A stretch of 57,483 bases of DNA from a virus, in IMG/VR virus record IMGVR_UViG_3300028840_004876; one strand, given 5' to 3'. The notes under the pieces are model-generated. The model was given only the letters and a program-made list of their open reading frames with translations, was not told the origin of the DNA and did no database searches. Numbering within the stretch: position 1 is the first letter of the stretch; the number at the start of each line of letters is the position of its first letter. Shown piece by piece: positions 14,366 through 34,332 of this stretch. Position numbers and translations under genes: made by a program.

Positions 14366-15064
14366 ATGCCTGAGAGATTGGAGACGCGACGGCTGTTGCG
14401 CCACCGAGCGGCGGCGACGTCACGACCTTACATGGCGGCGCAGCTGCCCGGTGGAGAGGTGCTCGTGTTCGACACGCGGCCCTCCGGCGGTGGCCCGTTC
14501 TTCCCGGACATGGACGAGGACCGGGCGGCAGCGTACGCGCTGTCGATGTGCCGCGCGTGGAATGACGCGCTCGGTCGCGAGGACACCACACCACACACGG
14601 ATCTCGTACGACGCTTCCACGAGCGCCACCACTTCGGGATCGACCGTAACCTCTGCGAGGAAGGCGGCGATCACGACATGTTCCCCGCTGCGATGCTCAC
14701 GGCCATGGCGATGCAGGTGCTGGCGATGTCCGAGACGCTCGCGGCGTACGCCAGGAAGAGCGAACCGAACGGCGACTGGCGCATGAGTCGCGCGCACAAC
14801 ATGACCGAGGAACTCGCCGAGGTGCTCTTGGCCATGGCGGCCAAGGATCCTGTCGCGCTGCTCGACGGCCTGGGTGACTTGGCGTATGTCACGCATGGCA
14901 CCGCGGTCGTGTACGGGCTTCCGCTGGAGCGCGGGTTCCGGGAGATCCATCGGTCGAACATGACCAAGGACCCCGCGCCGGAAGGCGAGGTCACCCTGCA
15001 CCCGGTCAAGGGCGAGAACTACGAGCCGCCGGATCTCGCCGGTTGCTTCGAGGTGACGGAATGA
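14366..15064 (+). CDS. All-alpha NTP pyrophosphohydrolase (MazG / PRA-PH-like)
   Basis: MTEELAEVLLAMAAKDPVALLDGLGDLAYVTHGTAVVYGLPLERGFREIHRSNMTK matches the EExxE...D...D...sNmsK pattern of MazG-like phage enzymes. A gagaggag RBS lies upstream. Confidence 0.7.
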   Translation: MPERLETRRLLRHRAAATSRPYMAAQLPGGEVLVFDTRPSGGGPFFPDMDEDRAAAYALSMCRAWNDALGREDTTPHTDLVRRFHERHHFGIDRNLCEEGGDHDMFPAAMLTAMAMQVLAMSETLAAYARKSEPNGDWRMSRAHNMTEELAEVLLAMAAKDPVALLDGLGDLAYVTHGTAVVYGLPLERGFREIHRSNMTKDPAPEGEVTLHPVKGENYEPPDLAGCFEVTE

Positions 15065-16107
15065 GCCAGGTCAACCACGCCGCGGATCGCAAGGGCGCGG
15101 CGCTGTGCCTCGACGAGGCGTGGCACTACGCGGCGGCCGAGCTGTGGGACCACGCCGCTCACGCGACGTCGCGAGACGGTGACATCTTCGCGGAGCTTCC
15201 GGCCGCGCGTCTCATGCTCATGAACACCCGCGCCGTGTGGATGATGGGGCCGCGCAGCCCTTCACCGCTGTACGCTGCGGGCGAGCTCATGTGGTACCTC
15301 AGCGGGTCGGAGGATGGCGAGTTCATCTGCCACTATGCTCCGAGTTACGAGCGGTTCCTCAACGACGGCGTCGCGCTCGGCGCGTACGGGCCGCACATTC
15401 GTGGCCCGCTCAAGAGCGTGGGTGGCTTCGACCCGCTCATGCGGATCGCGTCGCTTCTCACAGCGAAGCCCGATACCCGGCAGGCCGTGTTGCCGATCTA
15501 CGGCTATCACGACCTCCAGGCTGCGGGCTCGCTGGCGAACGACATACCCTGCACACTCGGTCTTCAGTTCCTCGTGCGCGATTCGAGTCTCAACGTGATC
15601 TCGACCATGCGCTCGAACGACCTATGGCAGGGTCTGCCGTACGACATCTTCGCGTTCGCGACCATCAACGTTCTGCTGGCGCACCACCTCGACCTCTCGC
15701 CAGGATGGATCTGCCACCAGGCGGGATCGCTTCACCTGTACGAGCGCCACGCTGAGGCGACGCACCGCGCGATACTCAGCGGCCAAGACATGTACGCGCG
15801 ACCGCCGAAGCTGGGGTGGTGGACGCGTCGCGAGCCGGGCCGGCTGTTCCACGATCTCGCCGCCGCGGTCGCGCTCGAGCGTCGCTTTCGCGAGGATCGC
15901 GAGGTGCCGCTGGCCGAAGCGATCTCGTGCATCCAGCAGAGTCTCGGGGCGCGAACGCTGCTCGGCACCATCGTCGCGCTCTGCTACGCGAACCGCCGGG
16001 CCTTCAACATCGACGAAGCGAACGCGATGAACGTCGTCATCCCCGACTGGCTCATCGCCAAGGTCATCAACTGGCAGGGCCGTCAGCGAGCGTGGAGGAA
16101 GTCATGA
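15061..16107 (+). CDS. Thymidylate-synthase-family enzyme with the cytosine-type Asp. Predicted dCMP C5-hydroxymethylase or dCMP C5-methylase.
   Basis: ATGA overlap with the upstream stop. DIPCTLGLQFLVRDSSLNVISTMRSNDLWQGLPYDIFAFATI...GSLHLYERH aligns without gaps to E. coli ThyA [41 protein letters not shown]...GDTHLYSNH. Asp replaces Asn177. Confidence 0.75.
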   Translation: MSQVNHAADRKGAALCLDEAWHYAAAELWDHAAHATSRDGDIFAELPAARLMLMNTRAVWMMGPRSPSPLYAAGELMWYLSGSEDGEFICHYAPSYERFLNDGVALGAYGPHIRGPLKSVGGFDPLMRIASLLTAKPDTRQAVLPIYGYHDLQAAGSLANDIPCTLGLQFLVRDSSLNVISTMRSNDLWQGLPYDIFAFATINVLLAHHLDLSPGWICHQAGSLHLYERHAEATHRAILSGQDMYARPPKLGWWTRREPGRLFHDLAAAVALERRFREDREVPLAEAISCIQQSLGARTLLGTIVALCYANRRAFNIDEANAMNVVIPDWLIAKVINWQGRQRAWRKS

Positions 16108-16652
16108 TCACGCTCATCATCGAAGGCGCAGACAACCTCGGCAAGACCACGGCCGCGAAGAGGCTCGCGGCGCTGCACCTCGATCGGACCGGGGAGGCTA
16201 TCCCCGTCATCCATCACGGCCCGCCAACGGACCCCGTGATGGAATACTCGACCGAGCTCCTGCGCCCTGCCATACACGACCGTGGCCATCTTGGCTGGCT
16301 TGTGTGGCAAGGCATGCTGGCGCAAAGCGGGACGGAGTTCGACCGCCTCGCGATGGAGCAGCTGGTCCGGGTGCTGCGCGTCGTCCATCGTGTGATCGTC
16401 GTGTGCCTGTACGCCGATGACGACTGGTACTGCGAGCGCATCGCAGAGTACGACGATCGCGATGAGCTCATGCCGCCCAACATTCGACGGGTCGCGAACC
16501 GCGCGTTCGCGCAGCTCTGCTGGTCGCGCGACGGTAACTGTGAGAAGTACGTCGACATCCCTTACAACGTCAGCGTCAGCGGGTTCCCCAGCGATGCGAC
16601 CTTGAACCGCTGGCTGGACCGCTGCTCCCTGCGCCAGAGTGAGGCGCTCTGA
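16104..16652 (+). CDS. P-loop kinase, thymidylate-kinase-like (dNMP kinase; a DNA-level kinase is an alternative)
   Basis: ATGA overlap with the upstream stop. LIIEGADNLGKTTAAKRLA (P-loop, Tmk-like) and AIHDRGHLGWLVWQ (DRY..S..AYQ-like). Confidence 0.65.
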   Translation: MITLIIEGADNLGKTTAAKRLAALHLDRTGEAIPVIHHGPPTDPVMEYSTELLRPAIHDRGHLGWLVWQGMLAQSGTEFDRLAMEQLVRVLRVVHRVIVVCLYADDDWYCERIAEYDDRDELMPPNIRRVANRAFAQLCWSRDGNCEKYVDIPYNVSVSGFPSDATLNRWLDRCSLRQSEAL

Positions 16653-18681
16653 GGTCACAGTGATAGAGCTTGAGACCCACGACGGTCGAGTCGTCAATCT
16701 CGTTGAGCACGCCCGTGAGCTGCCAGAGTTCACGGGCGTTCAGCGGGTCTACGCCGACTGCGAGACCACGTCCGGCGACCCGAAGGTGAAAGCCTTCAAG
16801 CCGTACGGTGGGCATCGCATCGCTGGCGTGGCCGTGCTGCGCGACGACGAGGCGACGGCGTGGTACGTCCCGGTGCGCCACAAGCATGGGCGCAACATCC
16901 CGGCGCAGGCGGTGCGTCGCTGGCTCCGAGACATGATGACCGTCCCGGAGTGGGTGAACCACAACGTCAAGTTCGACGCGCACTTTGTCGCGTGCGCCGG
17001 CCGTGGCGACGAGCTCGTCTTCCCTGGCCGCATGATCGACACCGCCACGCTCGCCAAGTGCCACGACACGGATCGCATGGGTCACGGGCTCAAGGCGGTA
17101 TGCGCCGACTGGCTCGAGCAAGATCTCTCTGAGCAGGACGAGGTCGAGGCGTACCTGAAGAACGAGAAGACCAAGGACTACGGGGAGCTGCCAGCGGATC
17201 TCTGCGGGCGGTACGCCGGCCAGGACGTCTTGATGAACCGCGAGCTCATGCGGTTCCTCGAGGACCAGCGGCCGGAACAGATGCGCGACACGTGGGAGAC
17301 CGAGATCCTTCTCACGCCTGTCCTCTTCGACATCGAGCGAGCGGGCATGCGTGTGAACGATCTCGCCGTGAAGAAGCTCAAAGTCAAGACGCTGCGGTCG
17401 ATACTCGGGGCGCAGCAGGAGATCGTGGACCTCACTGACGGCCGCGAGTTCGTCGACTCTAGCAAGAACCTGTACGACCTCATCGTGAACGTGCTCGGTC
17501 TTCCGGTCCTCAAGTGGAACACGGACCCCGAGTCGAAGGAGCGTGGCTCGCCGTCCTTCGACAAGGAAGCGCTTGAGCTGTACGGTATGCACCCCGAGGT
17601 GCTTCACCAGCCGAGGAACGCGCGCGTGATCGAGCTCATCAAGTCGGCGCGCGCTGAGTCGCACTTCCTCAGCAACTACTTGGAGGTCTTCGGTCAGGCG
17701 GTTGAGACCGGTGGCTTCGTTCATCCGAGCTTCAACCAGCTCATTCGGACGGGGCGCATGAGCGCCTCGGACCCGAACGTGATGGGGATGAGCAAGGCCG
17801 CCAAGGATCTCATCATCCCCGACGACGACGAGTACGGCATCCTCACTGCGGACGCAGAGCAGATTGAGTTCCGTCTCATCGTCCACTACATCCGTGATGC
17901 CGATGCGATCGCAGCGTACGCGCGTGACCCGGACACGGACTTCCACATGTGGGCGGCGCGGCTGTGCGAGGTCGAGCGCACGCCCGCGAAGACTCTCAAC
18001 TTTGCGATGGGCTACGGCGCAGGGAAGAAGCGCGTCGTGTCGCTGCTGCTCACGGACCCCACGATCATGCACGACGTCGGCGAGATCATCGCCCAGCAGA
18101 TCGAGGAGGGTCGCGTACCCGAACGCCTACGCGCACAGGCGTACCACCGGCTGTGCGAGCGTCGCGCGCAGGGCGTGTACACGCGGTACCACGAACGCCT
18201 GCCCGGGATCAAGAGGACCTCGCGAGCTGCGGCGCAGAAGTGCATCATGCGTGGGTACGTCTTCAACCCGTTCGGCCGTCGCCGTCACTTGCCGCCTCGC
18301 GCTGCGCACAAGGCCTTCAACACCATCGTCCAGGGCGGTGCGATGGACATCATCAAGCGGCGGATGATTCGGTTGGCTCCGCGTTACAACTCGTGGGTGC
18401 GGAACAGCGACATCCGTCTCTTCGGAAACGTCCACGATGAGCTGCCGCTTCACGGGCCACGCGAGGCGCTGGAGGACCCGAAGATCCAGGCGCGCATCCA
18501 CGCGGTGCTCGAGACCACAGACATCGACTTCCGGGTTCCGTTCACCTGGGAGGCCGGCTACTCACCGCTGTCGTGGAAGGCGGCGGGAGCGAAAGAGAAC
18601 GTCATCGACAAGATCCGGCTGCGGAAGATCGCCCTCGAGGAGGGCTTCCTCGGCCCGCAAATGCGGAGGTACTACGAGTGA
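16639..18681 (+). CDS. Family A DNA polymerase with a 3'-5' exonuclease domain
   Basis: YADCETT (ExoI), NHNVKFDAHF (ExoII), YAGQDV (ExoIII), ADAEQIEFRLIVHY (motif A), RTPAKTLNFAMGYGAG (motif B), NVHDEL (motif C). The start is GTG 16639 or GTG 16660. Confidence 0.93.
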   Translation: MRRSEVTVIELETHDGRVVNLVEHARELPEFTGVQRVYADCETTSGDPKVKAFKPYGGHRIAGVAVLRDDEATAWYVPVRHKHGRNIPAQAVRRWLRDMMTVPEWVNHNVKFDAHFVACAGRGDELVFPGRMIDTATLAKCHDTDRMGHGLKAVCADWLEQDLSEQDEVEAYLKNEKTKDYGELPADLCGRYAGQDVLMNRELMRFLEDQRPEQMRDTWETEILLTPVLFDIERAGMRVNDLAVKKLKVKTLRSILGAQQEIVDLTDGREFVDSSKNLYDLIVNVLGLPVLKWNTDPESKERGSPSFDKEALELYGMHPEVLHQPRNARVIELIKSARAESHFLSNYLEVFGQAVETGGFVHPSFNQLIRTGRMSASDPNVMGMSKAAKDLIIPDDDEYGILTADAEQIEFRLIVHYIRDADAIAAYARDPDTDFHMWAARLCEVERTPAKTLNFAMGYGAGKKRVVSLLLTDPTIMHDVGEIIAQQIEEGRVPERLRAQAYHRLCERRAQGVYTRYHERLPGIKRTSRAAAQKCIMRGYVFNPFGRRRHLPPRAAHKAFNTIVQGGAMDIIKRRMIRLAPRYNSWVRNSDIRLFGNVHDELPLHGPREALEDPKIQARIHAVLETTDIDFRVPFTWEAGYSPLSWKAAGAKENVIDKIRLRKIALEEGFLGPQMRRYYE

Positions 18682-19928
18682 AGAAGGAAGACGGGACCGC
18701 AATCGGAGTCCACGCGTTCGCGGGTGGCCTCACACTGGGCATGGACCGCGTGTTCAACGTCAAGGGTCAACTCGAAGTCTTCGACCTCGGCTGCGACAGC
18801 GTGCGTCACAATCTCGGGATCCCCGTCGTCCGTTGCGACGACGCGTCGTGGATGGACTCGCCGCCCGAGTGGGCCGAGAAGGCGCAGATCGTCTTCGGCA
18901 ACCCGCGGTGCACGGCGTTCAGCTGTCTCAACCGCGGGTGCGGGAAAGACGGGTACGGGCCCGAGGGCCGCGCGACCAAGGACGTTCGGCAGGCCGTCGA
19001 CTTCGTGGAGCGCGTGCGTCCGCACGTGTTCGTGTGGGAGTCCGTTCAGCCAGCGATCACCGCGGGCCTTCCGCTCGTCCTCGACATCGAGGAGCGCCTC
19101 GCCAAGCTGCGGTACTCGCCGACGCGGCTGCTGCTCAACGCAGCGACGTGGCACAACTCGCAGAACAGGCGTCGCTTCTTCCACGTGTTCACGAAGCCTG
19201 GCATCCACTTCTGGCCCGACGTCCCGGAGGTCCCGAAGAAGTGGCTCACCGTCCGCGAGGTGATCGAGGACCTCGCTGAGCACGAGGTGACCAGCGACCA
19301 TCAGTGGAACTACGAGACACCGGAGGACGCGGCGCAGGACGAGGTGCTCAACCACCACTGGTGGGACGACCCGTGCTTCACGCGTCTCGTCTGCTCGCTC
19401 GTCCCGCCAGGGCGCTCGATGAATGACGTGCCGTGGGACGACCTGCTCAAGATCCAGGCGGAGGGATTCAGCGGTTACGTCGACGGCTACCTCAGAGGCG
19501 CAGGCTCGTTCTCGCGTCACGCCGCGCGACGTCTCCATCCCGACGGCGCGAGCCGCGTCGTGTACGGTGGCTGGCACATGACGATCCACCCGTGGCTCGA
19601 CCGCGGCGTCACCGTGCGTGAGACCGCGAGGCTCATGGGGTTCCCCGACGACTGGGTCTTCCTTGGTCCGGCCGGTGGCTACGCGCAGATCGGGAAGGGC
19701 GTCGTGCCGGCCGTCGCGGAGTGGCTCGCGTGGCAGATCCTTCGAGCCATCGACTCGCCGAACCCGACCAAGCGCAAGAAGGAGTGGCGGTTCAACACGC
19801 GGACGCGGATGGTCGAGGAGCGCCGCGTGCCGGATGGCGAGGTGCGCACGTTCGATCTCACGCGCATGACTGCGAAGGTGCCGCGCCCGAAGCTCGCGCC
19901 TCGACGGAGCGTGTTCGAAGGCTACTGA
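18678..19928 (+). CDS. DNA (cytosine-5) methyltransferase-like protein with atypical catalytic motifs
   Basis: GTGA overlap with the polymerase stop. HAFAGGLTLG (motif I), FGNPRCTAFS (motif IV, PRC instead of PC), FVWESV (motif VI, ESV instead of ENV), SQNRRRFF (motif VIII), TVRETARLMGFPDDW (IX), GKGVVPAV (X). Confidence 0.8.
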   Translation: MKKEDGTAIGVHAFAGGLTLGMDRVFNVKGQLEVFDLGCDSVRHNLGIPVVRCDDASWMDSPPEWAEKAQIVFGNPRCTAFSCLNRGCGKDGYGPEGRATKDVRQAVDFVERVRPHVFVWESVQPAITAGLPLVLDIEERLAKLRYSPTRLLLNAATWHNSQNRRRFFHVFTKPGIHFWPDVPEVPKKWLTVREVIEDLAEHEVTSDHQWNYETPEDAAQDEVLNHHWWDDPCFTRLVCSLVPPGRSMNDVPWDDLLKIQAEGFSGYVDGYLRGAGSFSRHAARRLHPDGASRVVYGGWHMTIHPWLDRGVTVRETARLMGFPDDWVFLGPAGGYAQIGKGVVPAVAEWLAWQILRAIDSPNPTKRKKEWRFNTRTRMVEERRVPDGEVRTFDLTRMTAKVPRPKLAPRRSVFEGY

Positions 19929-19957
19929 GAAAAACTCTGAGTTAGCGGAGATTGCTG

Positions 19958-19986
19958 TTGACGGCCCATGGCCCGTGGTGTAGAAT
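19958..19986 (+). promoter_or_regulatory. Early promoter P1: TTGACG, 17-nt spacer, TAGAAT
   Basis: Exact 17-nt spacer. CTGAGAAAAACTCTGAG lies upstream at 19925. The conserved leader aacagtcgattgaaaccacgggccgcacagaacaggag follows. Confidence 0.7.
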
Positions 19987-20034
19987 TTCAACAGTCGATT
20001 GAAACCACGGGCCGCACAGAACAGGAGACGAACA

Positions 20035-20499
20035 ATGGCTAACACCGACAAGCAGCTTCAGGAACTCTTCGACAACGCCGATCGCTTCGGCCGCCACAGC
20101 GCGACCATCGGCGGCATCGAGTTCATCGTCCGCGTTCGGACCGACGGGATCGTCGTCGTGGTCGATGGCGACGAGGACAGCCGCGAGGGGTTCGACACGA
20201 TGGACGACGCGCTGCACGCCGCTGCGGACCACATCGCGATGGTCGAGGACGCGACGCTCGCCGAGATGGCGCATGACGAGCCGTCCGACAAGTTCGAGTT
20301 CGAGGCGCTCGTCGGCGAGACGGACGTCACCTTCAAGGCGCCGAAGACCTTGGCCATCAACGAGTGGATGCGACGCGCCCTCGTCCACGCGATCATCGAA
20401 GGCGAGGAGCCGACGGCCGACACGCTCATCTGCCTCAAGCGGGCGGGCACCTCCGAGGACGACGCCTTCTTCGCCAACGTTTCCGACCTCACCTGCTAG
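20035..20499 (+). CDS. Hypothetical early protein, strongly acidic (154 aa)
   Basis: The start was moved to ATG 20035, which follows gaacaggagacg. By my count it has about 34 Asp+Glu and 13 Lys+Arg. It is the first gene behind P1. Confidence 0.65.
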   Translation: MANTDKQLQELFDNADRFGRHSATIGGIEFIVRVRTDGIVVVVDGDEDSREGFDTMDDALHAAADHIAMVEDATLAEMAHDEPSDKFEFEALVGETDVTFKAPKTLAINEWMRRALVHAIIEGEEPTADTLICLKRAGTSEDDAFFANVSDLTC

Positions 20500-20507
20500 A
20501 GCTGCGC

Positions 20508-20536
20508 GCCGGGCGCCTCCACGAGGGGCGCCCGGC
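20508..20536 (+). terminator. Hairpin terminator gccgggcgcc-tccacgagg-ggcgcccggc
   Basis: 10-bp GC stem with a 9-nt loop. The stem-loop is identical to the one at 24604..24632. Confidence 0.55.
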
Positions 20537-20539
20537 TGA

Positions 20540-20555
20540 CTGAGAAATTTCTCAG
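20540..20555. promoter_or_regulatory. Perfect 16-bp palindrome CTGAGAAATTTCTCAG upstream of P2, an operator or UP-like element
   Basis: Self-complementary. Related CTGAGAAA motifs occur at 7020, 19925, 24230 and 24636, each upstream of a predicted promoter. Confidence 0.5.
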
Positions 20556-20562
20556 AAGGTTG

Positions 20563-20591
20563 TGGACGGGTCGTGGCCGCAAGCGTACACT
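20563..20591 (+). promoter_or_regulatory. Early promoter P2: TGGACG, 17-nt spacer, TACACT
   Basis: Same architecture and leader as P1 (aacagtcgattgaaaccacggccgca...gaacaggag). Confidence 0.65.
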
Positions 20592-20644
20592 AGCAACAGT
20601 CGATTGAAACCACGGCCGCACGGAACCACGAACAGGAGCCAGCC

Positions 20645-20863
20645 ATGAAGTTCGGAATCACGATTCGCGAGGCGTACGCCGCGCTGAAGAAGCCGGGCAT
20701 CTTCATCGACGCCGCTGTCCGCCTCTTCGAGGAGGACTCGGTACACGTGTCGCTCACGAAGGCCGCGCTGCGCGAGCGACTGGACTCGGCTGCGGCCGAG
20801 CTGGGGATGAACCATCGCACCAACATCGACGTCGACGCTGACGGCAACCTTTGGGTCGAGTAG
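20645..20863 (+). CDS. Hypothetical early protein (72 aa)
   Basis: ATG follows gaacaggagccagcc, behind P2. Confidence 0.6.
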   Translation: MKFGITIREAYAALKKPGIFIDAAVRLFEEDSVHVSLTKAALRERLDSAAAELGMNHRTNIDVDADGNLWVE

Positions 20864-20886
20864 TGAACCAGGAACAGGAGACTACG

Positions 20887-21399
20887 ATGAACGCTTCGCA
20901 GACGAGAGCCGTGACGCTGGTCGAGAACTTCAACCGTCACACGGACACGGGCGACATCGTCGAGTTCGCCGTCGATGACCTCACCGTCAAGGTGTGGCGC
21001 GACGAGCTCGGCCGGACCCGCGTCGACGCCGGCGGCCGCAGCGCCGCCTTCGACTCGGCGCTCGCCGCCGAGAACGCCCTCCGCTTCAAGCTCGGCCTGC
21101 CCGAGCGTACGACGCGGCGCACGGGCGCCGCGGCCGAGTACTACGCCCAGGCCGTCGAGCAGACCGTTCAGCGCACGGGCGCCGAGCTGCTGCGCAACAT
21201 GCGCGACCTGGCCGAGCACCTTCAGCGCGAGGCGCAGCGTCTCGAGGACGCGCTCAACGCCGAGCAGGTGGTTCGCGGGACCGTCAACAGCCTGGGCGTC
21301 TGCCAGACCCGCGCCACGGAGGTCGACCGCCTGTGCGCCGTCCTCACCGAGCAGGTCGAGGCGCGTACCATGGTCCGCACGATGGTGAAGGGAAAGTAG
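20887..21399 (+). CDS. Hypothetical early protein (170 aa)
   Basis: The start was moved to ATG 20887, which follows ggaacaggagactacg. Confidence 0.6.
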   Translation: MNASQTRAVTLVENFNRHTDTGDIVEFAVDDLTVKVWRDELGRTRVDAGGRSAAFDSALAAENALRFKLGLPERTTRRTGAAAEYYAQAVEQTVQRTGAELLRNMRDLAEHLQREAQRLEDALNAEQVVRGTVNSLGVCQTRATEVDRLCAVLTEQVEARTMVRTMVKGK

Positions 21400-21401
21400 A
21401 G

Positions 21402-21875
21402 ATGAGCGGCAGGATCTACATCCGCGACGCGCGGACCGGCGAGGAGCTCAAGAGCCATTCGATGCACGGGCGACGTCTCGAGGGTTGCTCGTCCGCGCCC
21501 ATCATCGAAGGGCGCCGCGTGATGAACGCGCGGACCGCCGTGCACACCTTCCGCACCTCGCGCCAGCGGGCCGAGAACTGGATCGTCGGTCTCAAGGCTC
21601 TGCCCGACCCGCGCCAGCCGCTCCAGGTCAAGATGTGGTGGGGCCCGGAGCACGCTGAGACCGTGTGGCTGCTCGACCACGATGGGAGCGAGCTCGTCGA
21701 TGAGCACCCGCGCTACATCACCCGCGAGGAGTTCCTCGCGCTCAGCGCGGCGCAGGCGGCGGGCACGCACCCGCGCGACCCGGAGCCGCAGAGCGCCGCG
21801 CGGACCGAGGAGCAGGTCCAGGCGGACATCGACCGGTGGGAGCAGTGGGAGAAGGAGAACGGGTACTACGACTGA
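21402..21875 (+). CDS. Hypothetical early protein (157 aa)
   Basis: ATG 21402 lies inside the long Arg-rich track ORF 20994..21875. The plausible protein sequence begins at MSGRIYIRD. Confidence 0.55.
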   Translation: MSGRIYIRDARTGEELKSHSMHGRRLEGCSSAPIIEGRRVMNARTAVHTFRTSRQRAENWIVGLKALPDPRQPLQVKMWWGPEHAETVWLLDHDGSELVDEHPRYITREEFLALSAAQAAGTHPRDPEPQSAARTEEQVQADIDRWEQWEKENGYYD

Positions 21876-21884
21876 GTCGATCAC

Positions 21885-21912
21885 GCGGGGACCTTCGGGT
21901 CCCCGCTCTTTC
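21885..21912 (+). terminator. Intrinsic terminator gcggggacc-ttcg-ggtccccgc followed by tctttc
   Basis: 9-bp stem, tetraloop and a T-rich tail. Confidence 0.65.
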
Positions 21913-21925
21913 GCAGGTAAAGTAC

Positions 21926-21945
21926 ACATTGCGTATCCGCAATGT
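21926..21945. promoter_or_regulatory. Perfect 20-bp palindrome ACATTGCG-TATC-CGCAATGT just upstream of the RBS of the sugar operon
   Basis: 8-bp arms with a 4-nt spacer. It ends 15 nt before ATG 21960. Confidence 0.5.
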
Positions 21946-21959
21946 CGAGAGGAGGAAGC

Positions 21960-22559
21960 ATGCATCAACTCAGAGTTGCGAGCGTCGCCCCCTTCGAGGG
22001 AGTGAAGCTCGTCAAGTACGGTCGCTTCGACGACGAGCGCGGGTACTTCGCCGAGCCGTTCCGCGCCAGCCAGATGGCCGACGTCGTCGGCGCGCCCATC
22101 GTCCAGATGAACGAGTCGCTGTCGCACGCGGGCGTACTCCGAGGTCTCCACTTTCAGTGGGCGCCCTTCATGGGCAAGCTCGTTCGCGTGATCGACGGGT
22201 ACATGGTCGACATCGTGTGCGACATCCGCGTCAACTCGCCGACGTACGGCGTGGTCCAGATGGTCCGCATGCTCCCTGGCAGCGGATGGATCTGGGTCCC
22301 GCCGGGTTTCGCACACGGGAACGCGTTCCCGGTCCGCACGCGCATTCAGTACCTGTGCACGGGCGAGTACTCGCAAGAGACGGAGGCCTGCCTGTCGCCA
22401 CTCGGGACGGACCTCGACTGGTCCCTCTGCGACCCCGCCGTGCTCGAGGTCGTGCGCGCGTGCCCGACCATCTCGATGAAGGACCGCGACGGCTACTCGG
22501 CGCAAGAGTGGCTGGCCGACGAGCGGTCGATGAACTTCCTGTATGAGGACCTCCGATGA
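21960..22559 (+). CDS. rmlC: dTDP-4-dehydrorhamnose 3,5-epimerase-like cupin (RmlC family)
   Basis: FDDERGYFAEPF, VLRGLHFQ, KLVRVIDGYMVDIVCDIRVNSPTYG and WVPPGFAHGN. The start was moved to ATG 21960, which follows gagaggaggaagc. Confidence 0.85.
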   Translation: MHQLRVASVAPFEGVKLVKYGRFDDERGYFAEPFRASQMADVVGAPIVQMNESLSHAGVLRGLHFQWAPFMGKLVRVIDGYMVDIVCDIRVNSPTYGVVQMVRMLPGSGWIWVPPGFAHGNAFPVRTRIQYLCTGEYSQETEACLSPLGTDLDWSLCDPAVLEVVRACPTISMKDRDGYSAQEWLADERSMNFLYEDLR

Positions 22560-23281
22560 CCCGCGACGCCAGCGTCCTCTTCACCGGCGGCTCGGGCCTC
22601 TTGGGCGCCGCCATGCGAGCCAGGCGCCCCGGCCTCAGGTACCCGCCTAGGGGCGCGTTCGATGTAACCCGCCCGTCGGCAATGCGAAACTACGTGGAGG
22701 CCCTTAGCCTGTCCTGTATCGTCCACGCAGGGGCCTTTACGTCCCCACCACGGGTAGACGCTGACCCTGCCCGGGCGATCGAGGTCAACGTGGCGGGCAC
22801 CGCGCACGTGGCCGCGCTGTGCGCGGCGCGGAAGCTGCGCCTCATCTACATCTCGACGGACTACGTCTTCCGTGGCACGCGAGGACCGTACGCCGAGGAC
22901 GATCCCGTGTACCCCGTCAACTGGTACGCGTGGTCGAAACTCGGAGGTGAGTGCGCCGCTCGTCTCTGTCCGGGCAGCCTCATCATCCGCACCTCGTTCG
23001 GACCGGACGAGTTCCCGTACGAGAAGGCGTTCTACGATCAGCTCACGTCGCGGGTCTCGGTGAGCGTGTTCGCAGACGCGCTGTCGCGACTCATCGACTC
23101 GGACGTGTCCGGAGTCCTGCACGTGGGCCACTACGAGGGCCGCTCCGTCCTGGCGTTCGCGCGGGAGCAAGGCGCGGCGCCGGAGCAAGTCACTCGCTTC
23201 GACATGCCGTTCGCTGTTCCGTATGACACCACGCTCGACGTCGACCGATGGCTCGAGCTCAACGAGGAAGGACGTGTGTGA
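22556..23281 (+). CDS. rmlD: dTDP-4-dehydrorhamnose reductase-like SDR (RmlD family, short form, 241 aa)
   Basis: ATGA overlap with the upstream stop. LFTGGSGLLGAA (Rossmann), YISTDYVF and NWYAWSKLGGE (YxxxK). Confidence 0.7.
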   Translation: MTRDASVLFTGGSGLLGAAMRARRPGLRYPPRGAFDVTRPSAMRNYVEALSLSCIVHAGAFTSPPRVDADPARAIEVNVAGTAHVAALCAARKLRLIYISTDYVFRGTRGPYAEDDPVYPVNWYAWSKLGGECAARLCPGSLIIRTSFGPDEFPYEKAFYDQLTSRVSVSVFADALSRLIDSDVSGVLHVGHYEGRSVLAFAREQGAAPEQVTRFDMPFAVPYDTTLDVDRWLELNEEGRV

Positions 23282-24246
23282 TGCGCATCGTACTCTGCGG
23301 AGGTGGGGGCTTCATCGGCTCGGCGCTGGCGCCCGAGCTCGTCCAACGCGGCCACGACGTCACGGTGCTCGACCTCTTCTGGTTCGGGCGCGCGATGCCG
23401 AGCGACGTCACGGACGTGAAGCAAGAGCTCTTCGACTGCTGCGGCGACGACTTCGAGAATGCGGACGTCGTCGTGTTCCTGGCCGGCCTGTCGAACGACC
23501 CGATGGCCGAGTTCAGCCCGGCTCTGAACTTCAAGTACAACGCCGCGCTCCCTGCGCTGCTCGCGTTTCTCGCGCGTGGCATCGGCGTGCGTCGCTTCGT
23601 CTACGCCTCGAGCTGCTCCGTGTACGGGTGGGCGCCCGACGAGGAGCAGACCGAGAGCGGCACCATCGACTGCGACTACCCGTACGGCATCGCGAAGCTT
23701 CAGGGCGAGGCCGGCGTTTCTCGGATGCTGTGCGACGGAGAGTTCGAAGTCGTCGCGCTGCGGAAGGGAACCGTCTGTGGTCACAGCCCGCGCCCGCGTG
23801 CGGACCTCATCGTGAACGCGATGATCAAGTCCGCGCTCACCGAGGGCGTCATCTACATCAACGACGCCACGACGTGGCGTCCGCTACTCAGCGTCCGCGA
23901 CGCCGTGCGTGCGTACGTGCGTGCGATCGAGGGACGCGCCAGCGGCGTGTTCAACGTCGCGAGCGTGAACGCGACCGTGCGCGAGGTCGCGGACGACGTG
24001 CTCGCGACGCTGTGCCTGTTCAAGTACGGCGCCGGCGTCGAGATCGTGCACCGCATGCGGAAGGACCGCCGCAGTTACCGCGTGAGCACCGCGTCGTTCC
24101 GCGCCGTGTTCGGCAACTGCTTCAGCGACGGCGTACGCGACATGGCCGCGAGCGTCCTTCAGAACCTCGAGGCGTACGGGGACTTCAGCGACCCCGCGCT
24201 GAGCAACATCGAGACGTTCAAGGCCCTCGGAGAAAATCTCAGTTAA
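23281..24246 (+). CDS. NAD-dependent sugar epimerase/reductase (extended SDR). It lacks the TDE dehydratase triad.
   Basis: TGATG overlap with the upstream stop. LCGGGGFIGSAL, YASSCSVYG and YPYGIAKLQGE (YxxxK). The sequence is SCS where 4,6-dehydratases have TDE. Confidence 0.8.
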   Translation: MRIVLCGGGGFIGSALAPELVQRGHDVTVLDLFWFGRAMPSDVTDVKQELFDCCGDDFENADVVVFLAGLSNDPMAEFSPALNFKYNAALPALLAFLARGIGVRRFVYASSCSVYGWAPDEEQTESGTIDCDYPYGIAKLQGEAGVSRMLCDGEFEVVALRKGTVCGHSPRPRADLIVNAMIKSALTEGVIYINDATTWRPLLSVRDAVRAYVRAIEGRASGVFNVASVNATVREVADDVLATLCLFKYGAGVEIVHRMRKDRRSYRVSTASFRAVFGNCFSDGVRDMAASVLQNLEAYGDFSDPALSNIETFKALGENLS

Positions 24247-24658: not shown

Positions 24659-24687
24659 TGGACGGGGCGCACCACGAACGCTAGAAT
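24659..24687 (+). promoter_or_regulatory. Early promoter P4: TGGACG, 17-nt spacer, TAGAAT
   Basis: The conserved leader aacagtcgattgaaaccacgggccgtacagaaccgaacaggag follows. Confidence 0.7.
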
Positions 24688-26534: not shown

Positions 26535-26537
26535 AAG

Positions 26538-27179: not shown

Positions 27180-27213
27180 ACCTTCCTGGGGTCGAACAGC
27201 GATAGGAGATGTG

Positions 27214-29513: not shown

Positions 29514-29515
29514 GC

Positions 29516-29767: not shown

Positions 29768-30113
29768 CGCCCTCGCGACGGAGGTTCTTGGCTGGCATGA
29801 GCGCCACACCATGTGGTGGCGACTCGGCTCGCCGACGGGCCTCCATCGCGCCACGGGCGCTGCGCAGATTCCGCAGCGTGGGTTCTTCCGACCGGACATG
29901 AACCTGCTGCACCTTCAGATCTGCCTCGCCCGTTTGAAGGACGACGGGTGCGAGTTCTCGCATGGCTGGTCTAACATGAGGTACGCGTATCGCATCGACT
30001 TCGAAGACACGCGAGCCGAGCTGACGGTCGACGTCGAGGAGCTGCTCAGCGGCGAGACCATCGAAGCGGCCGCCCGCGTCGCGCTCGCGATGTGGAGGGA
30101 ACTGCATGGGTAA
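29751..30113 (+). CDS. Hypothetical protein (120 aa)
   Basis: 17-nt overlap with the upstream gene. ATEVLGWHE has a pattern reminiscent of phage ABA-sandwich domain proteins, which is a weak resemblance. Confidence 0.45.
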   Translation: MNDLCDALATEVLGWHERHTMWWRLGSPTGLHRATGAAQIPQRGFFRPDMNLLHLQICLARLKDDGCEFSHGWSNMRYAYRIDFEDTRAELTVDVEELLSGETIEAAARVALAMWRELHG

Positions 30114-30330
30114 GCTGCATATTCGGAAGCAAGGCGAGCCGCAGCCCACCGAGGCTTATCTCGTCGAGGCTTTCGTGCCGGGTCTCGGCACGCGGCTCGT
30201 CACCGTTCATGACAGGCCGTACAAGCCGCACTCATCGTACCGCGCCGCGACCGTGGGTCGTGGGCGGAACATCAAGTACGGGTACGTCATCTACGGCGGG
30301 GCGCCTGGCGCCACGTTCGTCCAGTGCTAG
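30106..30330 (+). CDS. Hypothetical protein (74 aa)
   Basis: 8-nt overlap with the upstream gene. The composition is more protein-like than the overlapping Arg/Ser-rich frame of track ORF 30092. Confidence 0.45.
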   Translation: MGKLHIRKQGEPQPTEAYLVEAFVPGLGTRLVTVHDRPYKPHSSYRAATVGRGRNIKYGYVIYGGAPGATFVQC

Positions 30331-30415
30331 AGCTCTTCGTCGCACTCGTAGGCGGGCTCATCGGGTTTGTACTCGGAGTTCGCGCGGCGAGGATGGATCG
30401 AGAGAGGAGGAAGTG

Positions 30416-31441
30416 ATGAGCTGTACCTACTACTGTGACGGGTGTGGGAAGAAGCTCGGTTCGCACGTCGAGGGCGTGCTGAAGGCCGAGCACCGCACTC
30501 GCAACGGGCGCACCCTTTCCGTGTTCGTTCAGCCACAGCTGGTCAACGGCGAGCACTGGTGCCACGACTGCCAGCGCGCGGCCATCGCGTCCACGGGAGA
30601 CGGGCGCAAGCAGCCGATGGCAGAGCGTGTCGACCTGCCCGTGGTTGAGAAGCGCGGCGAGGAGCTGCCGCTGTCGCGGTATCGCAACAGCGACTGGCGC
30701 GTGAGCGTGATCAACGACATCATGAATAGCGCTGCCGACGCTGCGCCGCAGTACGGCATCGACAAGATGATCGCGCTCGAGTTGCGGGAGCGCGCGCAGC
30801 TCGCGTTGCTCGACGCGTGGGTCGCGGGCGTCAGACATCAGCTCTCGCTTCGCGATGACTTCGGCGCCGACGAGAAAGCGTACGCCGGTGAGGCGCTTCA
30901 CGAGCTCGCGAGGGTCGTCACGGGTCAGATCACCGACGTCAAGGCTGCGCTGAAGGGCGCGTACAACACCGGACTCGGAGTCGGCGTCAGGCGCAACTAC
31001 AACGATCTCGAGGCTGCGCGCGAGCAGCGGAACAAGTACAAGGAACGGCGCGACGCCGTGTACCGGGTGTTCCGCAGTGTCATCGCCGCGCTCGGCTTCG
31101 AGGACATGCCCGTCGAGACGCTTCACGCGGTACAGCTGGACCAGTGGCTGGCGCGAAGCGAGCCGCGTCTTCGCGAGCTGGTCGAGACCCGTGATAGGCT
31201 GCGCTCGGCGAATCGCACCCTCAGTCGTCGTCGGCGTGAGCGCGACGCCGCGGTCGAGGACCTCAGCACCGTCGCGAGGATCATCGAGTGCGAAGACCAG
31301 CAGCACATCATCGAGCGGGCGCGCCAGCTGCGGTCTGCGAAGTCGACGGCGTGGGACATGCTCAGCACGCTGCGAACGAAGATTCAGCATGGCGCGCCGC
31401 GCGATCAGCTGCTCGAGAACATCGCCGAGGTGCTCGGATGA
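30416..31441 (+). CDS. Zinc-ribbon plus coiled-coil protein (341 aa)
   Basis: The start was moved to ATG 30416, which follows gagagaggaggaagtg. CDGCGKK...CHDC. Confidence 0.55.
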   Translation: MSCTYYCDGCGKKLGSHVEGVLKAEHRTRNGRTLSVFVQPQLVNGEHWCHDCQRAAIASTGDGRKQPMAERVDLPVVEKRGEELPLSRYRNSDWRVSVINDIMNSAADAAPQYGIDKMIALELRERAQLALLDAWVAGVRHQLSLRDDFGADEKAYAGEALHELARVVTGQITDVKAALKGAYNTGLGVGVRRNYNDLEAAREQRNKYKERRDAVYRVFRSVIAALGFEDMPVETLHAVQLDQWLARSEPRLRELVETRDRLRSANRTLSRRRRERDAAVEDLSTVARIIECEDQQHIIERARQLRSAKSTAWDMLSTLRTKIQHGAPRDQLLENIAEVLG

Positions 31442-32082
31442 ATGTCATCGAGCCGAGCTACCAGATCGAGTACGTCACCGGCACGGAGTGTGACGATGAC
31501 CCCGTTCAGTCGCCCCTCGCTCTCATCGAGCGCGCGGCCCGTACGTGCTACAAGTCCGAGGCCCGCATCGCGCCCGGTACTGCCGAGAAGCTGACGCGTC
31601 ATCTCATCAAGCGCGGGCATCACGCGATGCTCGAGTTCGGGTTGGTGGTCGTGCGGTTCATCGTCGACCGCGGCGTCAGCCACGAGCTGGTCCGCCACCG
31701 CCTCTGCTCGTTCGCGCAGGAGTCGACGCGCTTCTGTAACTACAGCGGCGGTGTCACGTTCATCCGACCGCCGTGGCTAGACCAGGGCGGTTCCACGTCG
31801 GCAAGTGGTCGCTGGCGGCACGCCATGTCGAGAGCGGAGTCCGACTACCTCGCCTTGCTCCGCGGAGGTTGGACGCCGCAGCAGGCGCGCAGCGTTCTGC
31901 CGAACAGCACGAAGACCGAGATCGTGGTCGGCGCCAACTTCCGTGAGTGGCGAACGATCTTCGGTCTCCGCGTGGCGAAGGCCGCGCACCCGCAGATGCG
32001 GCAGGTCATGGTGCCCTTGCTCGAAGAGGTCAAGACCATCGTTCCCGTTCTCTTCGACGACGTTGAGGTGCCTGATGCTTGA
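31438..32082 (+). CDS. thyX: Flavin-dependent thymidylate synthase ThyX
   Basis: ATGA overlap with the upstream stop. VRHRLCSFAQESTRF is an exact RHRxxSxxxxSxR ThyX signature. Confidence 0.9.
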   Translation: MNVIEPSYQIEYVTGTECDDDPVQSPLALIERAARTCYKSEARIAPGTAEKLTRHLIKRGHHAMLEFGLVVVRFIVDRGVSHELVRHRLCSFAQESTRFCNYSGGVTFIRPPWLDQGGSTSASGRWRHAMSRAESDYLALLRGGWTPQQARSVLPNSTKTEIVVGANFREWRTIFGLRVAKAAHPQMRQVMVPLLEEVKTIVPVLFDDVEVPDA

Positions 32083-32847: not shown

Positions 32848-33125
32848 TGTACGTTCTGACGCAGGAAGAGAAAGACCAGCTCGTACCACGTGATCGCCTC
32901 GACTCGCAGACGGCTCGCGCGAATGCGCTCGTCAACGTCGTGCAGCGCCTCATGCGCCGCGGCGACGAGGAGGGCGCGCCGGAGTGGGAGTGCCCGCATG
33001 ACGGCGGCTACGTGTGCGACGAGTGCCCGCTCATCGTGACGCCGGACGGTAAGCATCGGCGGTTCATCGGGACGGGCGGCGCGCGCGTCGAGCTGTGTCA
33101 CCTGGACAAGGAGTTCTCGAAGTGA
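32847..33125 (+). CDS. Hypothetical protein (92 aa)
   Basis: TGATG overlap with the upstream stop. ECPHDGGYVCDECP is a Cys/His cluster. Confidence 0.5.
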   Translation: MYVLTQEEKDQLVPRDRLDSQTARANALVNVVQRLMRRGDEEGAPEWECPHDGGYVCDECPLIVTPDGKHRRFIGTGGARVELCHLDKEFSK

Positions 33126-33334
33126 GGCTCCCGAAGAAGAAGGCCAAGGCGCAGAGCAAGGGCCAGATCATCTGCGCCGTCAACGCAACCGCGCGGTGCG
33201 AGATCGCTGCCGTGACGCCGGACAAGGCGGCGCTGGTCCGCCTCGGATGGAAGAGGTCCTCGCCGGAGGACGGGAAGCACGACACGTGGGCCTGCCCGCA
33301 CTGCTCGAAGATCGTGGAGGTACTCGGACGATGA
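33122..33334 (+). CDS. Small basic zinc-ribbon protein (70 aa)
   Basis: GTGA overlap with the upstream stop. ICAV...ARCE...CPHC. Confidence 0.45.
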   Translation: MRLPKKKAKAQSKGQIICAVNATARCEIAAVTPDKAALVRLGWKRSSPEDGKHDTWACPHCSKIVEVLGR

Positions 33335-34332
33335 AAGCGCTCATCACTGGCATGACACCGACGCAATGCGGTCGGCAGGCTCGCGGCATCACGGTCGCGG
33401 GTGACGGCTGGCGCAGCGCACTCGAGCACGCGGGGTGGGAAGTGGATCACCGCGTGATCGCTGTCAACGAGGACCTCGGCGAGTACGATGCCGTCCTCGT
33501 CGGGATCGGACAGATCAACTCCATGACTGCGAGGCACGCGAGCAGCGCACTGTACGCCTTGCTCGACCGGCCGGACGCGAAGCTCTTCTGCGACGACTGG
33601 CAGATCACGCAGGCGCACTCTGGCTTCCGCGTCGCACGCTGGTCGCCCATGCGCCTGTACACGATGGACGGTCGGCCGGGCAATACGCTGCTCTACCGCG
33701 ATCACCAGGACGCCGTCATGAAGGTGCTCAAGGAGTTCGCGAAGCCGCGGTGGAAGCGACCGATGCTCGTCGCGACGCACGGCGACGGCGTGCCGTACAA
33801 GCTGAAGGTCCCCGGTCCGGTGACGTGCGCGGACCCGTCCAACTTCACTCCGAGGTGGGCGCCGTACCCCTGGCCGCGTGAGCGTGCGTGGATCTGGGCA
33901 TCGCTGTACCGCTACGAGAAGAGCAAGAACCGCAAGACGCCGTGGGCGGGCACGTGGCCGATCGTCCATCACGGACGCGTCCGCGACCTGCCGAACGGCG
34001 TCGACCTCGACAACGACAAGGAGTTCATTCCGCAGGACGAGCTCATCGAGAAGATGCAGCGAACCGTGGGCTACGTCGTCCCCGAGCGCCCGCTCATGGG
34101 CAGTGGCTGGTGGCGTCACCGCTACGTTCTCGCGAGCGACAGCGGTAACGTGGTCGTGTGCCATCCGGACGAGGCCGCGATCTTCGGTGATGCGTACCTC
34201 GTCACGCCGCAGGAGGTCGAGGCGCATCCGGAACCGCACGCGCTCTGGCAGGCGCAACGCGATGCGCTCAACGCCGTGGTGTGGTCGGCCGACCGCTGCG
34301 CCGAGGTCGTGGACGAGTTCATGCGCTCATGA
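33331..34332 (+). CDS. Hypothetical protein (333 aa), candidate DNA base glycosyl/group transferase (weak)
   Basis: ATGA overlap with the upstream stop. MKALITGM..., EYDAVLVGIGQINS and GWWRHRYVLASDSGNVVVCHPDEA loosely recall the two Rossmann-like halves of T4 beta-glucosyltransferase. This is from memory and not verified. Confidence 0.3.
   Translation: MKALITGMTPTQCGRQARGITVAGDGWRSALEHAGWEVDHRVIAVNEDLGEYDAVLVGIGQINSMTARHASSALYALLDRPDAKLFCDDWQITQAHSGFRVARWSPMRLYTMDGRPGNTLLYRDHQDAVMKVLKEFAKPRWKRPMLVATHGDGVPYKLKVPGPVTCADPSNFTPRWAPYPWPRERAWIWASLYRYEKSKNRKTPWAGTWPIVHHGRVRDLPNGVDLDNDKEFIPQDELIEKMQRTVGYVVPERPLMGSGWWRHRYVLASDSGNVVVCHPDEAAIFGDAYLVTPQEVEAHPEPHALWQAQRDALNAVVWSADRCAEVVDEFMRS

Follow-up and report, generated by a model that had tools for sequence, protein, structure and literature searches.

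The 57,483-nucleotide (nt) stretch of viral DNA in IMG/VR record IMGVR_UViG_3300028840_004876, the whole of which is called the window here, probably encodes a system of the T-even type in which cytosine is replaced by 5-hydroxymethylcytosine (5hmC) and then glycosylated, with either a host sugar or the product of a phage-borne sugar cassette as the donor. Genes for a MazG-like pyrophosphohydrolase, a ThyA homologue, a Tmk-like kinase, a family A DNA polymerase (PolA) and a C5-cytosine DNA methyltransferase (C5-MT) lie coupled in one locus (Table 1). Elsewhere in the window is the gene for a 333-amino acid (aa) protein that is predicted to have the GT-B fold of T4 beta-glucosyltransferase (BGT). 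A sequence-only reading of this DNA had proposed that three loci act together, the first making a C5-modified dCMP, the second a 6-deoxyhexose nucleotide sugar, and the third supplying a candidate transferase. The T-even logic of loci 1 and 3 is borne out by an active-site signature, by the BGT fold and by the gene neighbourhoods of relatives. The proposed link to locus 2 is not, as such genes accompany the transferase family in none of 80 viral loci.

In the proposed pathway, the MazG-like enzyme would hydrolyze dCTP to dCMP, and the ThyA homologue, judged by its active-site residues, would convert dCMP to 5-hydroxymethyl-dCMP (5hm-dCMP). The P-loop kinase would phosphorylate this product, and the phage PolA would build the resulting 5hm-dCTP into DNA while the flavin-dependent thymidylate synthase ThyX would keep up the supply of dTMP. 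Since ThyX provides dTMP, thymine is presumably canonical. After replication, the GT-B enzyme would move the sugar of a nucleotide-sugar donor onto the hydroxyl of 5hmC, a role to which its fold, its neighbourhood and the fusions of its relatives point. UDP-glucose or another nucleotide sugar made by the host would be the simplest donor, as for related phages without sugar genes, or the donor may instead be the product of the phage's own three-gene cassette. The gain expected from such a system is that phage DNA would be shielded from host restriction and CRISPR nucleases. The C5-MT and a VRR-NUC nuclease coupled to the transferase gene probably belong to the system as well.

A ThyA homologue with the signature of T4 gp42

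The best match of the ThyA homologue in the PDB is the CMP 5-hydroxymethylase MilA (6.5e-28). Its identity to the T4 enzyme gp42 is 31% over the active site, and in a MAFFT alignment the two proteins agree at all six scored active-site columns (D143/C146/M165/N168/D169/D177). The catalytic cysteine (C146 in Escherichia coli) falls in the segment 'DIPCTLGLQF', which aligns with both MilA and gp42. As in these two enzymes, an aspartate takes the place of E. coli L143, three residues before the catalytic cysteine ('ANDIPC'), and another takes the place of E. coli N177 ('PYDIFAF'). Asp169 is kept in the motif 'RSND', with no D169N change.

These positions serve as specificity markers in the ThyA family that have been partly validated by experiment. 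Cytosine as the substrate is marked by N177D, a non-methyl product by an acidic residue at L143, which affects water access, and a 5-hydroxy-dCMP synthase by D169N (Lee et al., NAR 2026, PMC13326640). Under these rules, the gp42-type signature predicts a 5hm-dCMP synthase rather than a thymidylate synthase, a dCMP methylase or a 5-hydroxylase. The sequence-only reading had called this protein an Asp-type homologue; the aspartate at position 177 is indeed present and is part of the full gp42 signature. The start of the gene is joined to the MazG stop by an ATGA overlap.

Two other routes to modified pyrimidines were considered and set aside. A 5-hydroxycytosine route of the RB69 gp48 or DLP3 gp80 type was rejected on account of the retained D169. 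The route through 5-hydroxymethyluracil (5hmU), a 5hmU DNA kinase (5-HMUDK) and an aGPT-Pplase was rejected in view of Asp, rather than Asn, at position 177 and of the glycosyltransferase fold of the 333-aa protein.

A predicted glycosyltransferase with the fold of T4 BGT

The 333-aa protein has no match in Pfam, NCBIfam or the PDB sequences (phmmer against the PDB returned nothing at E<=10), and its single PHROG match is to a family of unknown function. A word-indexed protein search yielded one relative, and an exhaustive HMMER search yielded 531 representative clusters, counted at 50% identity. Members are mostly standalone proteins of ~340 aa. The family is viral, and almost all of its members are annotated as hypothetical.

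An AlphaFold2 model built from a 74-sequence alignment has a predicted local distance difference test (pLDDT) score of 94.5 and a predicted template modelling (pTM) score of 0.92. In a Foldseek search of the PDB, ranks 1-6 are all T4 BGT, with E values from 1.7e-10 to 1.5e-7 and template modelling (TM) scores of 0.58-0.63. Further matches are to other GT-B enzymes, including the T4 alpha-glucosyltransferase (AGT) and the DNA glycosyltransferase (GT) of phage HY126. Among predicted viral structures (BFVD), uncharacterised phage proteins lead with TM scores of 0.8-0.86, followed by UPI000035883D (351 aa, TM 0.66) and then by generic glycosyltransferases. Its equal length suggests that UPI000035883D may be T4 BGT. 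The resemblance to GT-B enzymes and BGT that the sequence-only reading had called faint is thus confirmed at the level of the fold by the structure prediction and Foldseek search that it had called for. The reading had also called for a search against aGPT-Pplase families; the fold is that of a glycosyltransferase and not of the pyrophosphorylase type.

In sequence, an invariant aspartate of the family (D89, in a 'DDW' motif) falls on BGT D100 in a weak, unfiltered hidden Markov model (HMM) alignment of 4 bits. BGT Asp100 is the catalytic base. T4 itself is absent among the matches listed by tblastn with the window protein. As kinship to BGT is found at the fold level only, the protein is not filed in the BGT sequence family (CAZy GT63). 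With its fold, its gene neighbourhood and the fusions to C5 DNA methyltransferases taken together, the protein is best read as a DNA 5hmC glycosyltransferase.

A module conserved across viruses

In a survey of IMG/VR, at least 267 stretches encode relatives of the GT. The best 80 loci were examined, with a 10-sequence query subset, and genes within 10 kb of each GT homologue were counted as its neighbours. The most frequent is a C5-MT gene (53 of the 80 loci), followed by genes for ThyA-like proteins (48), PolA (44) and MazG-like proteins (35), and a gene for a Tmk-like kinase directly follows the GT in 34. A tight gene order, C5MT-MazG-GT-kinase-ThyA-PolA, recurs in these loci, with the PolA homologue placed after the ThyA-like gene. 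The residues D143/C146/D169/D177 are found in 50 of 50 alignable ThyA-like neighbours, 49 from the surveyed loci and one from phage MW202657.

At least seven proteins (P0004, P0009, P0011, P0012, P0013, P0019 and P0029) fuse the GT domain to a C5 DNA methyltransferase. These fusions are 800-1400 aa long, with the methyltransferase at the N terminus and the BGT-like domain at the C terminus, and at times they carry a uracil-DNA glycosylase (UDG)-superfamily domain in between. We know of no hydroxymethylcytosine system that accounts for such a three-domain enzyme. Two of the methyltransferase fusions hold an intein/LAGLIDADG insertion, and another protein, P0040, instead joins the BGT-like domain to a C-terminal small-molecule S-adenosylmethionine (SAM) methyltransferase. 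The contigs of P0012 and P0004 are short; a MazG gene follows P0004. Unfused C5-MT and GT genes are adjacent, and a ThyX gene accompanies the module in L097.

Searches with tblastn extend the family to cultured and sequenced phages: Gordonia phages, in some of which the protein is annotated as a glycosyltransferase, T4-like phages of Aeromonas and Providencia, Stenotrophomonas phages, and the Manatee Spring siphovirus MW202657. The last shares the layout of replication and nucleotide-metabolism genes with the window and carries genes for MazG, a ThyA-like protein (41% identity by tblastn), the kinase, PolA, the C5-MT, the VRR-NUC nuclease and the GT. In the T4-like Providencia phage PSTRCR_121, the GT homologue lies between the equivalents of genes 43 and 42, which is the neighbourhood of beta-gt in T4.

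Some members of the family have additional sugar-related neighbours. A UXS-like short-chain dehydrogenase/reductase (SDR) is encoded in about 10 of the 80 modules, and a small-molecule SAM methyltransferase in 8. In L013, the two genes lie at 5463-6425 and 7914-8576 and encode an SDR with the motifs STSEVYG...YDEGKR...RIFNTYGPRM and a Methyltransf_23 protein; the same pair is seen in L015-L018, L023, L030 and L039. The label UXS (UDP-glucuronate decarboxylase) is assigned from these motifs. This subgroup hints at a pentose and/or an O-methylated sugar on 5hmC in these phages. In Aeromonas phage 50AhydR13PP (L090, 3817-7086), the BGT-like gene is the middle one of three consecutive open reading frames (ORFs) of ~350 aa. 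In Gordonia phage Mareelih (L002, 12001-16010), gp128 is the homologue, gp124 is weakly similar (E 3.6e-4) and gp125 is annotated as a GT. The placement of BGT-like genes beside other candidate GT genes in cultured phages suggests multi-sugar decoration.

Other enzymes of locus 1

The four genes for MazG, ThyA, kinase and PolA that the sequence-only reading had assigned to locus 1 are present and coupled, and a fifth gene, for the C5-MT, had been missed. The MazG-like protein matches phrog_671 ('nucleotide pyrophosphohydrolase', 3.6e-20), and its nearest relative in the PDB is DR2231, a MazG-like NTP pyrophosphatase. It is a candidate dCTPase/dUTPase that would clear dCTP and hand dCMP to the ThyA homologue. 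Its putative specificity for dCTP is suggested solely by the place of its gene beside that of the ThyA homologue.

The P-loop protein is probably a Tmk-like nucleotide kinase that would phosphorylate 5hm-dCMP, as judged from its sequence. Its Walker A motif is of the Tmk type, and it has weak profile matches to phrog_761 (thymidylate kinase, 1.8e-4) and PF02223 (0.23), with similarly weak support from the PDB. Its homologue in the syntenic phage MW202657 is 30% identical (7.6e-10). PolA, which combines a family A polymerase with a 3'-5' exonuclease, begins at a GTG codon at either 16639 or 16660.

The C5-MT gene is coupled to polA by a GTGA overlap with its stop codon. Aligned with M.HaeIII, the protein has recognisable motifs (AGGL, PRC, ESV and QNRRR), in which motif IV is PRC instead of PCQ and motif VI is ESV instead of ENV. 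In the proposed system, this enzyme may act on residual cytosines, or cytosine replacement may be only partial.

Several observations weigh against a T-even-type assignment. A conserved and apparently active C5-MT is hard to reconcile with full replacement of cytosine by 5hmC. The residue signature of the ThyA homologue cannot by itself tell hydroxymethyl from other non-methyl C5 products. The MazG-like protein and T4 gp56 are not similar in sequence, and DR2231, its nearest solved relative, is better known as a dUTPase-like enzyme. The kinase call is a weak one that depends on the Walker A motif and the profile matches just described. Aligned to BGT by hhalign, the 74-sequence GT profile reaches a probability of 28% over 79 columns, at which homology is not established. 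Finally, the phage is known from a metagenomic contig alone, and the assignment rests on prediction from sequence and structure.

The sugar cassette

Locus 2 encodes an RmlC-family cupin, a short RmlD-family reductase and an extended SDR, and had been read as a pathway to 6-deoxyhexose nucleotide sugars. This reading is not supported in that form. Neither the nucleotidyltransferase RmlA nor the 4,6-dehydratase RmlB was found by Pfam in any scanned ORF of the window, and the third enzyme of the locus is not a dehydratase: the extended SDR has the motifs 'SSCSVYG' and 'YGIAK' without the 'TDE' Asp-Glu pair of 4,6-dehydratases. With RmlA and RmlB missing and no dehydratase activity expected of the SDR, the trio cannot be called a 6-deoxyhexose pathway. 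The RmlC-like protein scores 118 bits against TIGR01221, under the equivalog cutoff of 155.75. The RmlD-like protein scores 117 bits against TIGR01214 (cutoff 224) and covers profile positions 3-179 of 287, or the first ~60%.

The top PDB match of the extended SDR is 6vo6 (2.9e-18), which we take to be the GDP-heptose C4-dehydrogenase Cj1427 of Campylobacter, an identity that our literature search did not confirm. Two chemistries are open for the trio. It could complete a rhamnose-type sugar from a 4-keto-6-deoxy intermediate that the host provides. By analogy, it might instead carry out a self-contained series of C4 oxidation, 3,5-epimerisation and C4 reduction, leading to an L-sugar that keeps its C6 hydroxyl. 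Campylobacter heptoses are made by such a C4-dehydrogenase / C3,C5-epimerase / C4-reductase route, which yields L-sugars with the C6 hydroxyl kept (PMC10680097).

The extended SDR has many bacterial homologues with ~50% identity. In three unrelated bacteria (Table 1), the order of the cassette is kept, with genes for a cupin (~212 aa), a short reductase (~240 aa) and an SDR (~320 aa) lying amid Wzy, Wzz, Bac_transf, GT1/GT2/GT9 or MBOAT genes. The short RmlD form (238-250 aa) also occurs in the bacterial cassettes and in the viral locus L089. As the same cassette is found in bacterial surface-polysaccharide clusters, the phage trio represents a cassette captured from bacteria. The bacterial three-gene cassette is itself conserved and apparently uncharacterised.

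Among viruses, the nearest relatives of the cassette are the two in L088 and L089. In L088, it is followed by a GT2+GT4 fusion and lies by head genes. In L089 (3287-11118), it is flanked by genes for three GTs, for a radical SAM enzyme and for a rhamnosyl-O-methyltransferase-like protein, and this group is enclosed by an SNF2 helicase gene on one side and PD-(D/E)XK / AAA_24 recombination genes on the other. The glycans made by the L089 set could be destined for DNA, as in another modification system, or for the virion or the host.

Alternative explanations

It is possible, though doubtful, that all three loci work together, with the captured cassette making an L-configured nucleotide sugar (a 6-deoxyhexose, L-hexose or L-heptose) that the BGT-like enzyme places on 5hmC. 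The BGT-like protein is the sole GT detected in the genome by Pfam on GT-length ORFs and by phmmer with six conventional GT queries, and the unscanned gaps of the window hold small genes only; no other protein of the phage would therefore be at hand to use a donor that the phage makes. Some DNA GTs from metaviromes strictly need a partner sugar epimerase (Pyle et al. 2023, 10.1101/2023.12.21.572611), phages RB69, DLP3 and RL38JI carry UDP-arabinose or UDP-galactofuranose genes (PMC13326640), and the UXS-like SDR and SAM methyltransferase genes in the modules described above likewise speak for phage-made donors. The cassette lies among early replication genes both here and in L089. The nearest published idea is a 2020 speculation on the rhamnose genes of phAPEC8-like coliphages, and no report of deoxyhexose or rhamnose on phage DNA was found in the searchable literature. 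Against a joint function, none of the 80 surveyed loci has an RmlC-like or RmlD-like gene within 10 kb of the GT. The DNA examined of L003, which encodes the nearest relative of the GT (59% identity), has no cassette, and the complete phage MW202657 has no sugar genes in the 50 kb examined. The viral relatives of the cassette bring their own conventional GTs (GT1/GT2/GT4), with no ThyA-like or BGT-like gene in the DNA examined of L088 and L089, and its bacterial homologues with ~50% identity are always in surface-polysaccharide clusters. In addition, 6-deoxygenation would hinge on the host when RmlA and RmlB are missing, and the three loci appear to be separate transcription units. Another explanation is quite plausible but falls short of probable: the cassette may be an auxiliary bacterial capture that serves glycans of the host envelope or of virion proteins, while the BGT-like enzyme uses a host donor such as UDP-glucose. 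The identical gene order in bacterial Wzy/Wzz/Bac_transf/GT clusters, the GT2+GT4 fusion that follows the cassette near the head genes of L088, the GT relatives that do without it, and its place at the end of its own promoter-to-hairpin unit all agree with this. Host enzymes would need to accept the product, however, as there is no second GT in the window. Surface conversion would also bring little obvious benefit to a phage that looks lytic and replication-autonomous, with no integrase in the scanned ORFs, and the cassette is embedded in an early DNA-metabolism gene block.

Two further explanations concern the core of the system, and both seem unlikely. In one, as in the phage MT/5mYOX/GT systems, the C5-MT would install a C5 group after replication and the GT would elaborate it, so that the part of the ThyA homologue would be a small one or another one. 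No gene is found near the GT more often than that of the C5-MT, which is fused to the GT in several proteins, and methyltransferase-dependent sugar hypermodification of cytosine is established (10.1101/2023.12.21.572611). But 5-methylcytosine has no hydroxyl to glycosylate, and Pfam finds no TET/JBP-type dioxygenase in the scanned ORFs, among which a 341-aa orphan could be modelled only poorly; a TET-dependent route was rejected because no dioxygenase was found. The ThyA-like, MazG and kinase genes are moreover as conserved with the GT as the C5-MT is, and the ThyA-like proteins are all of the gp42 type. In the other, which we consider similarly improbable, the ThyA homologue would make a different product (a 5-methyl one, known from XP12, or a 5-hydroxy one, known from RB69) or use CMP as MilA does, and the 333-aa GT would act on a non-DNA acceptor. 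The best solved relative of the ThyA homologue, MilA, is indeed CMP-specific, GT-B acceptors are very diverse, and rules that read specificity from a few residues are imperfect. Asp143 speaks against a methyl product, however, and the retained Asp169 against a 5-hydroxy product (PMC13326640), in a signature that equals that of T4 gp42. The fusions to DNA methyltransferases and the fixed place of the GT gene between MazG and ThyA-like genes point to DNA as the acceptor. A T-even-type replacement of cytosine followed by glycosylation remains the preferred explanation.

Genome layout and transcription units

The window has a GC content of ~65%, and all credible genes, called on the basis of GC3, are on the + strand. 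By gene content it looks like a whole siphovirus genome of ~57 kb. Pfam matches identify tape-measure and distal tail genes of the gene-transfer agent (GTA) type, a portal and a capsid, and the replication block comprises an SNF2 ATPase, a primase-helicase, PolA and a ligase. The GTA-type tail genes (DUF2460, BR0599 and Rcc01698-like) lie at 96-6386 and 50790-56011. The split of the tail module over both window ends fits a complete, circularly permuted genome, and the GTA-type genes possibly point to an alphaproteobacterial host. A megablast search with 14366-24246 found no DNA-level match among deposited phages.

Table 1. Predicted genes and regulatory signals in the window, and related cassettes in bacterial loci (given with their locus names)
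Feature	Coordinates	Strand	Evidence
MazG-like all-alpha NTP pyrophosphohydrolase, 232 aa	14366..15064	+	PF01503, 2.9e-11
ThyA-family enzyme, predicted 5-hydroxymethyl-dCMP synthase (T4 gp42/MilA type)	15061..16107	+	PF00303, 1.2e-22
P-loop protein, Tmk-like, 182 aa	16104..16652	+	Tmk-type Walker A 'EGADNLGKTT'
PolA, family A polymerase with 3'-5' exonuclease	16639..18681	+	PF00476, 3e-38; PF01612, 9.8e-7
C5-cytosine DNA methyltransferase homologue	18678..19928	+	PF00145, 3e-18
Predicted sigma-70-like promoter	19958..19986	+	TTGACG, 17 nt, TAGAAT; 10/12 consensus positions
RmlC-family cupin, NDP-4-keto-sugar 3,5-epimerase	21960..22559	+	PF00908, 2e-35
Short RmlD-family SDR, 241 aa, NDP-4-keto-sugar 4-reductase	22556..23281	+	PF04321, 1.5e-33
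Extended SDR, 321 aa, nucleotide-sugar C4-dehydrogenase or epimerase	23281..24246	+	PF01370, 7e-32
ThyX flavin-dependent thymidylate synthase	31438..32082	+	PF02511, 2.3e-44; ATGA overlap with upstream ORF
GT-B-fold T4 BGT-like protein, 333 aa, predicted DNA 5hmC glycosyltransferase	33331..34332	+	AlphaFold2 and Foldseek
VRR-NUC nuclease	34329..34718	+	PF08774, 2.8e-5, 24.6 bits (cutoff 23.8)
Terminator-like hairpin	35070..35087	+	7-bp stem, 6 G-C pairs, T-rich tail; consensus match
Bacterial cassettes	L092 318-2931; L093 5626-7963; L094 212-2575		in O-antigen/exopolysaccharide-type clusters

The components of loci 1-3 are all on the + strand and at, or a few bases from, the places that the sequence-only reading gave them, and the overlapping stop and start codons that it described are real. 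Junction sequences have ATGA or GTGA overlaps at 15061, 16104, 18678, 22556, 33331 and 34329, and the RmlD and SDR genes are joined by a TGATG overlap at 23279-23283. The GT start at 33331 overlaps the stop of a small upstream ORF, and the VRR-NUC start overlaps the GT stop (ATGA). The genome of the syntenic phage MW202657 likewise has an annotated VRR-NUC gene. More speculatively, this nuclease might act on unmodified DNA, discriminating it from modified DNA.

Immediately upstream of thyX, an orphan protein of 341 aa (30416-31441) has paired CxxC motifs near its N terminus and long predicted helices; the stop codon of its gene is coupled to the start of thyX. No homologue was found outside its own contig among 5.8 billion proteins. 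The corresponding 449-aa ORF (30092-31441) had been a candidate for a missing pathway enzyme and was rejected: it is this orphan, with 341 aa from 30416, and its single-sequence model (pLDDT 51) resembles a zinc ribbon with long helices.

Three promoter-like sites are seen in the region, where 0.9 are expected. From its sequence, the site at 19958..19986 is suggested to open a predicted transcription unit that ends with the sugar cassette. A near-identical pair of such sites (T[TG]GACG, 17 nt, TAGAAT), at 19958-19986 and 24659-24687, brackets this unit. A hairpin lies at 24238, and a short palindrome (CTCAGTTAACTCTGAG) falls exactly on the SDR stop. The terminator-like hairpin downstream of the VRR-NUC gene would, by its sequence, close the predicted unit that holds thyX, the GT gene and the VRR-NUC gene. 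The promoter-like sites at 19958 and 24659 together with the hairpin at 24238 suggest that the three loci are separate transcription units.

Implications

If correct, T-even-style cytosine replacement and glycosylation would extend to GC-rich environmental siphoviruses. A candidate function would also be at hand for a family of 531 clusters found in phages of Gordonia, Aeromonas, Providencia and Stenotrophomonas and in many uncultured phages. Several carriers, among them Gordonia phages Forza, Mareelih and GMA2, Aeromonas phage 50AhydR13PP and Providencia phage PSTRCR_121, are in culture, which opens their DNA to direct analysis. The module C5MT-MazG-GT-kinase-ThyA-PolA could be used to predict modified genomes, which matters for sequencing and cloning artefacts, for resistance to restriction and CRISPR, and for the choice of therapy phages.

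The module is coherent, widespread and directly testable, and the most exciting part of the system, the link to the cassette, is the least supported. If the cassette does feed the GT, a new class of DNA sugar and a new enzyme for 5hmC labelling would result. This would be the first L-configured cassette sugar on DNA, and the first surface-polysaccharide cassette recruited for DNA hypermodification. A separate novelty, if true, would be a mechanistic role, not accounted for by any known system, in a ThyA-type 5hmC system for the C5-MT partner, which is at times fused to the GT and accompanied by a UDG-like domain.

Comparison with known systems

The T-even system (gp56, gp42, gp1, gp43 and AGT/BGT) has the same logic and the same order of chemical steps as the one proposed here. 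In T4 the GT gene adjoins the hydroxymethylase gene, as it does in many loci of the GT family described above. The differences are also clear. The window belongs to a GC-rich siphovirus whose polymerase is of family A, whereas T4 represents the T4-like myoviruses. Its kinase is Tmk-like rather than gp1-like, its NTPase is unlike gp56, and its GT is without detectable sequence kinship to BGT. A conserved C5 DNA methyltransferase and thyX are present in addition.

The 5-hydroxycytosine clusters of RB69, DLP3 and RL38JI (PMC13326640) similarly combine a ThyA homologue, a Tmk-like kinase, GT-B DNA GTs and a MazG-type dCTPase. These phages encode their own nucleotide-sugar enzymes, and the HY126 GT is among the fold matches of the window protein. 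Their ThyA homologues have D169N and make 5-hydroxy-dCMP, whereas the window enzyme keeps D169. Their sugar genes lead to UDP-arabinose or UDP-galactofuranose and not to an RmlC/RmlD-type product. Unlike these clusters, the window includes a C5-MT, and its GT is unrelated in sequence to characterised DNA GTs.

GT-B-type DNA GTs from metaviromes often adjoin thymidylate-synthase homologues, as already reported by Pyle et al. (10.1101/2023.12.21.572611), so a core system of this kind is already known. The pathways tested by these authors use a C5-MT with a TET-like dioxygenase, and the latter was not found in the window. The sugars that they observed are hexose, N-acetylhexosamine (HexNAc), heptose, hexuronic acid and Kdo; deoxyhexose was not reported.

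For the sugar cassette, the reference is the RmlA-D pathway to dTDP-L-rhamnose. The window has an RmlC-family cupin and an RmlD-family reductase and no RmlA or RmlB; neither of its Rml-like proteins reaches the NCBIfam cutoff for an equivalog, and its reductase is of the short kind. The heptose route of Campylobacter (PMC10680097) is a closer parallel in its logic, which the SDR, the cupin epimerase and the reductase of the window fit.

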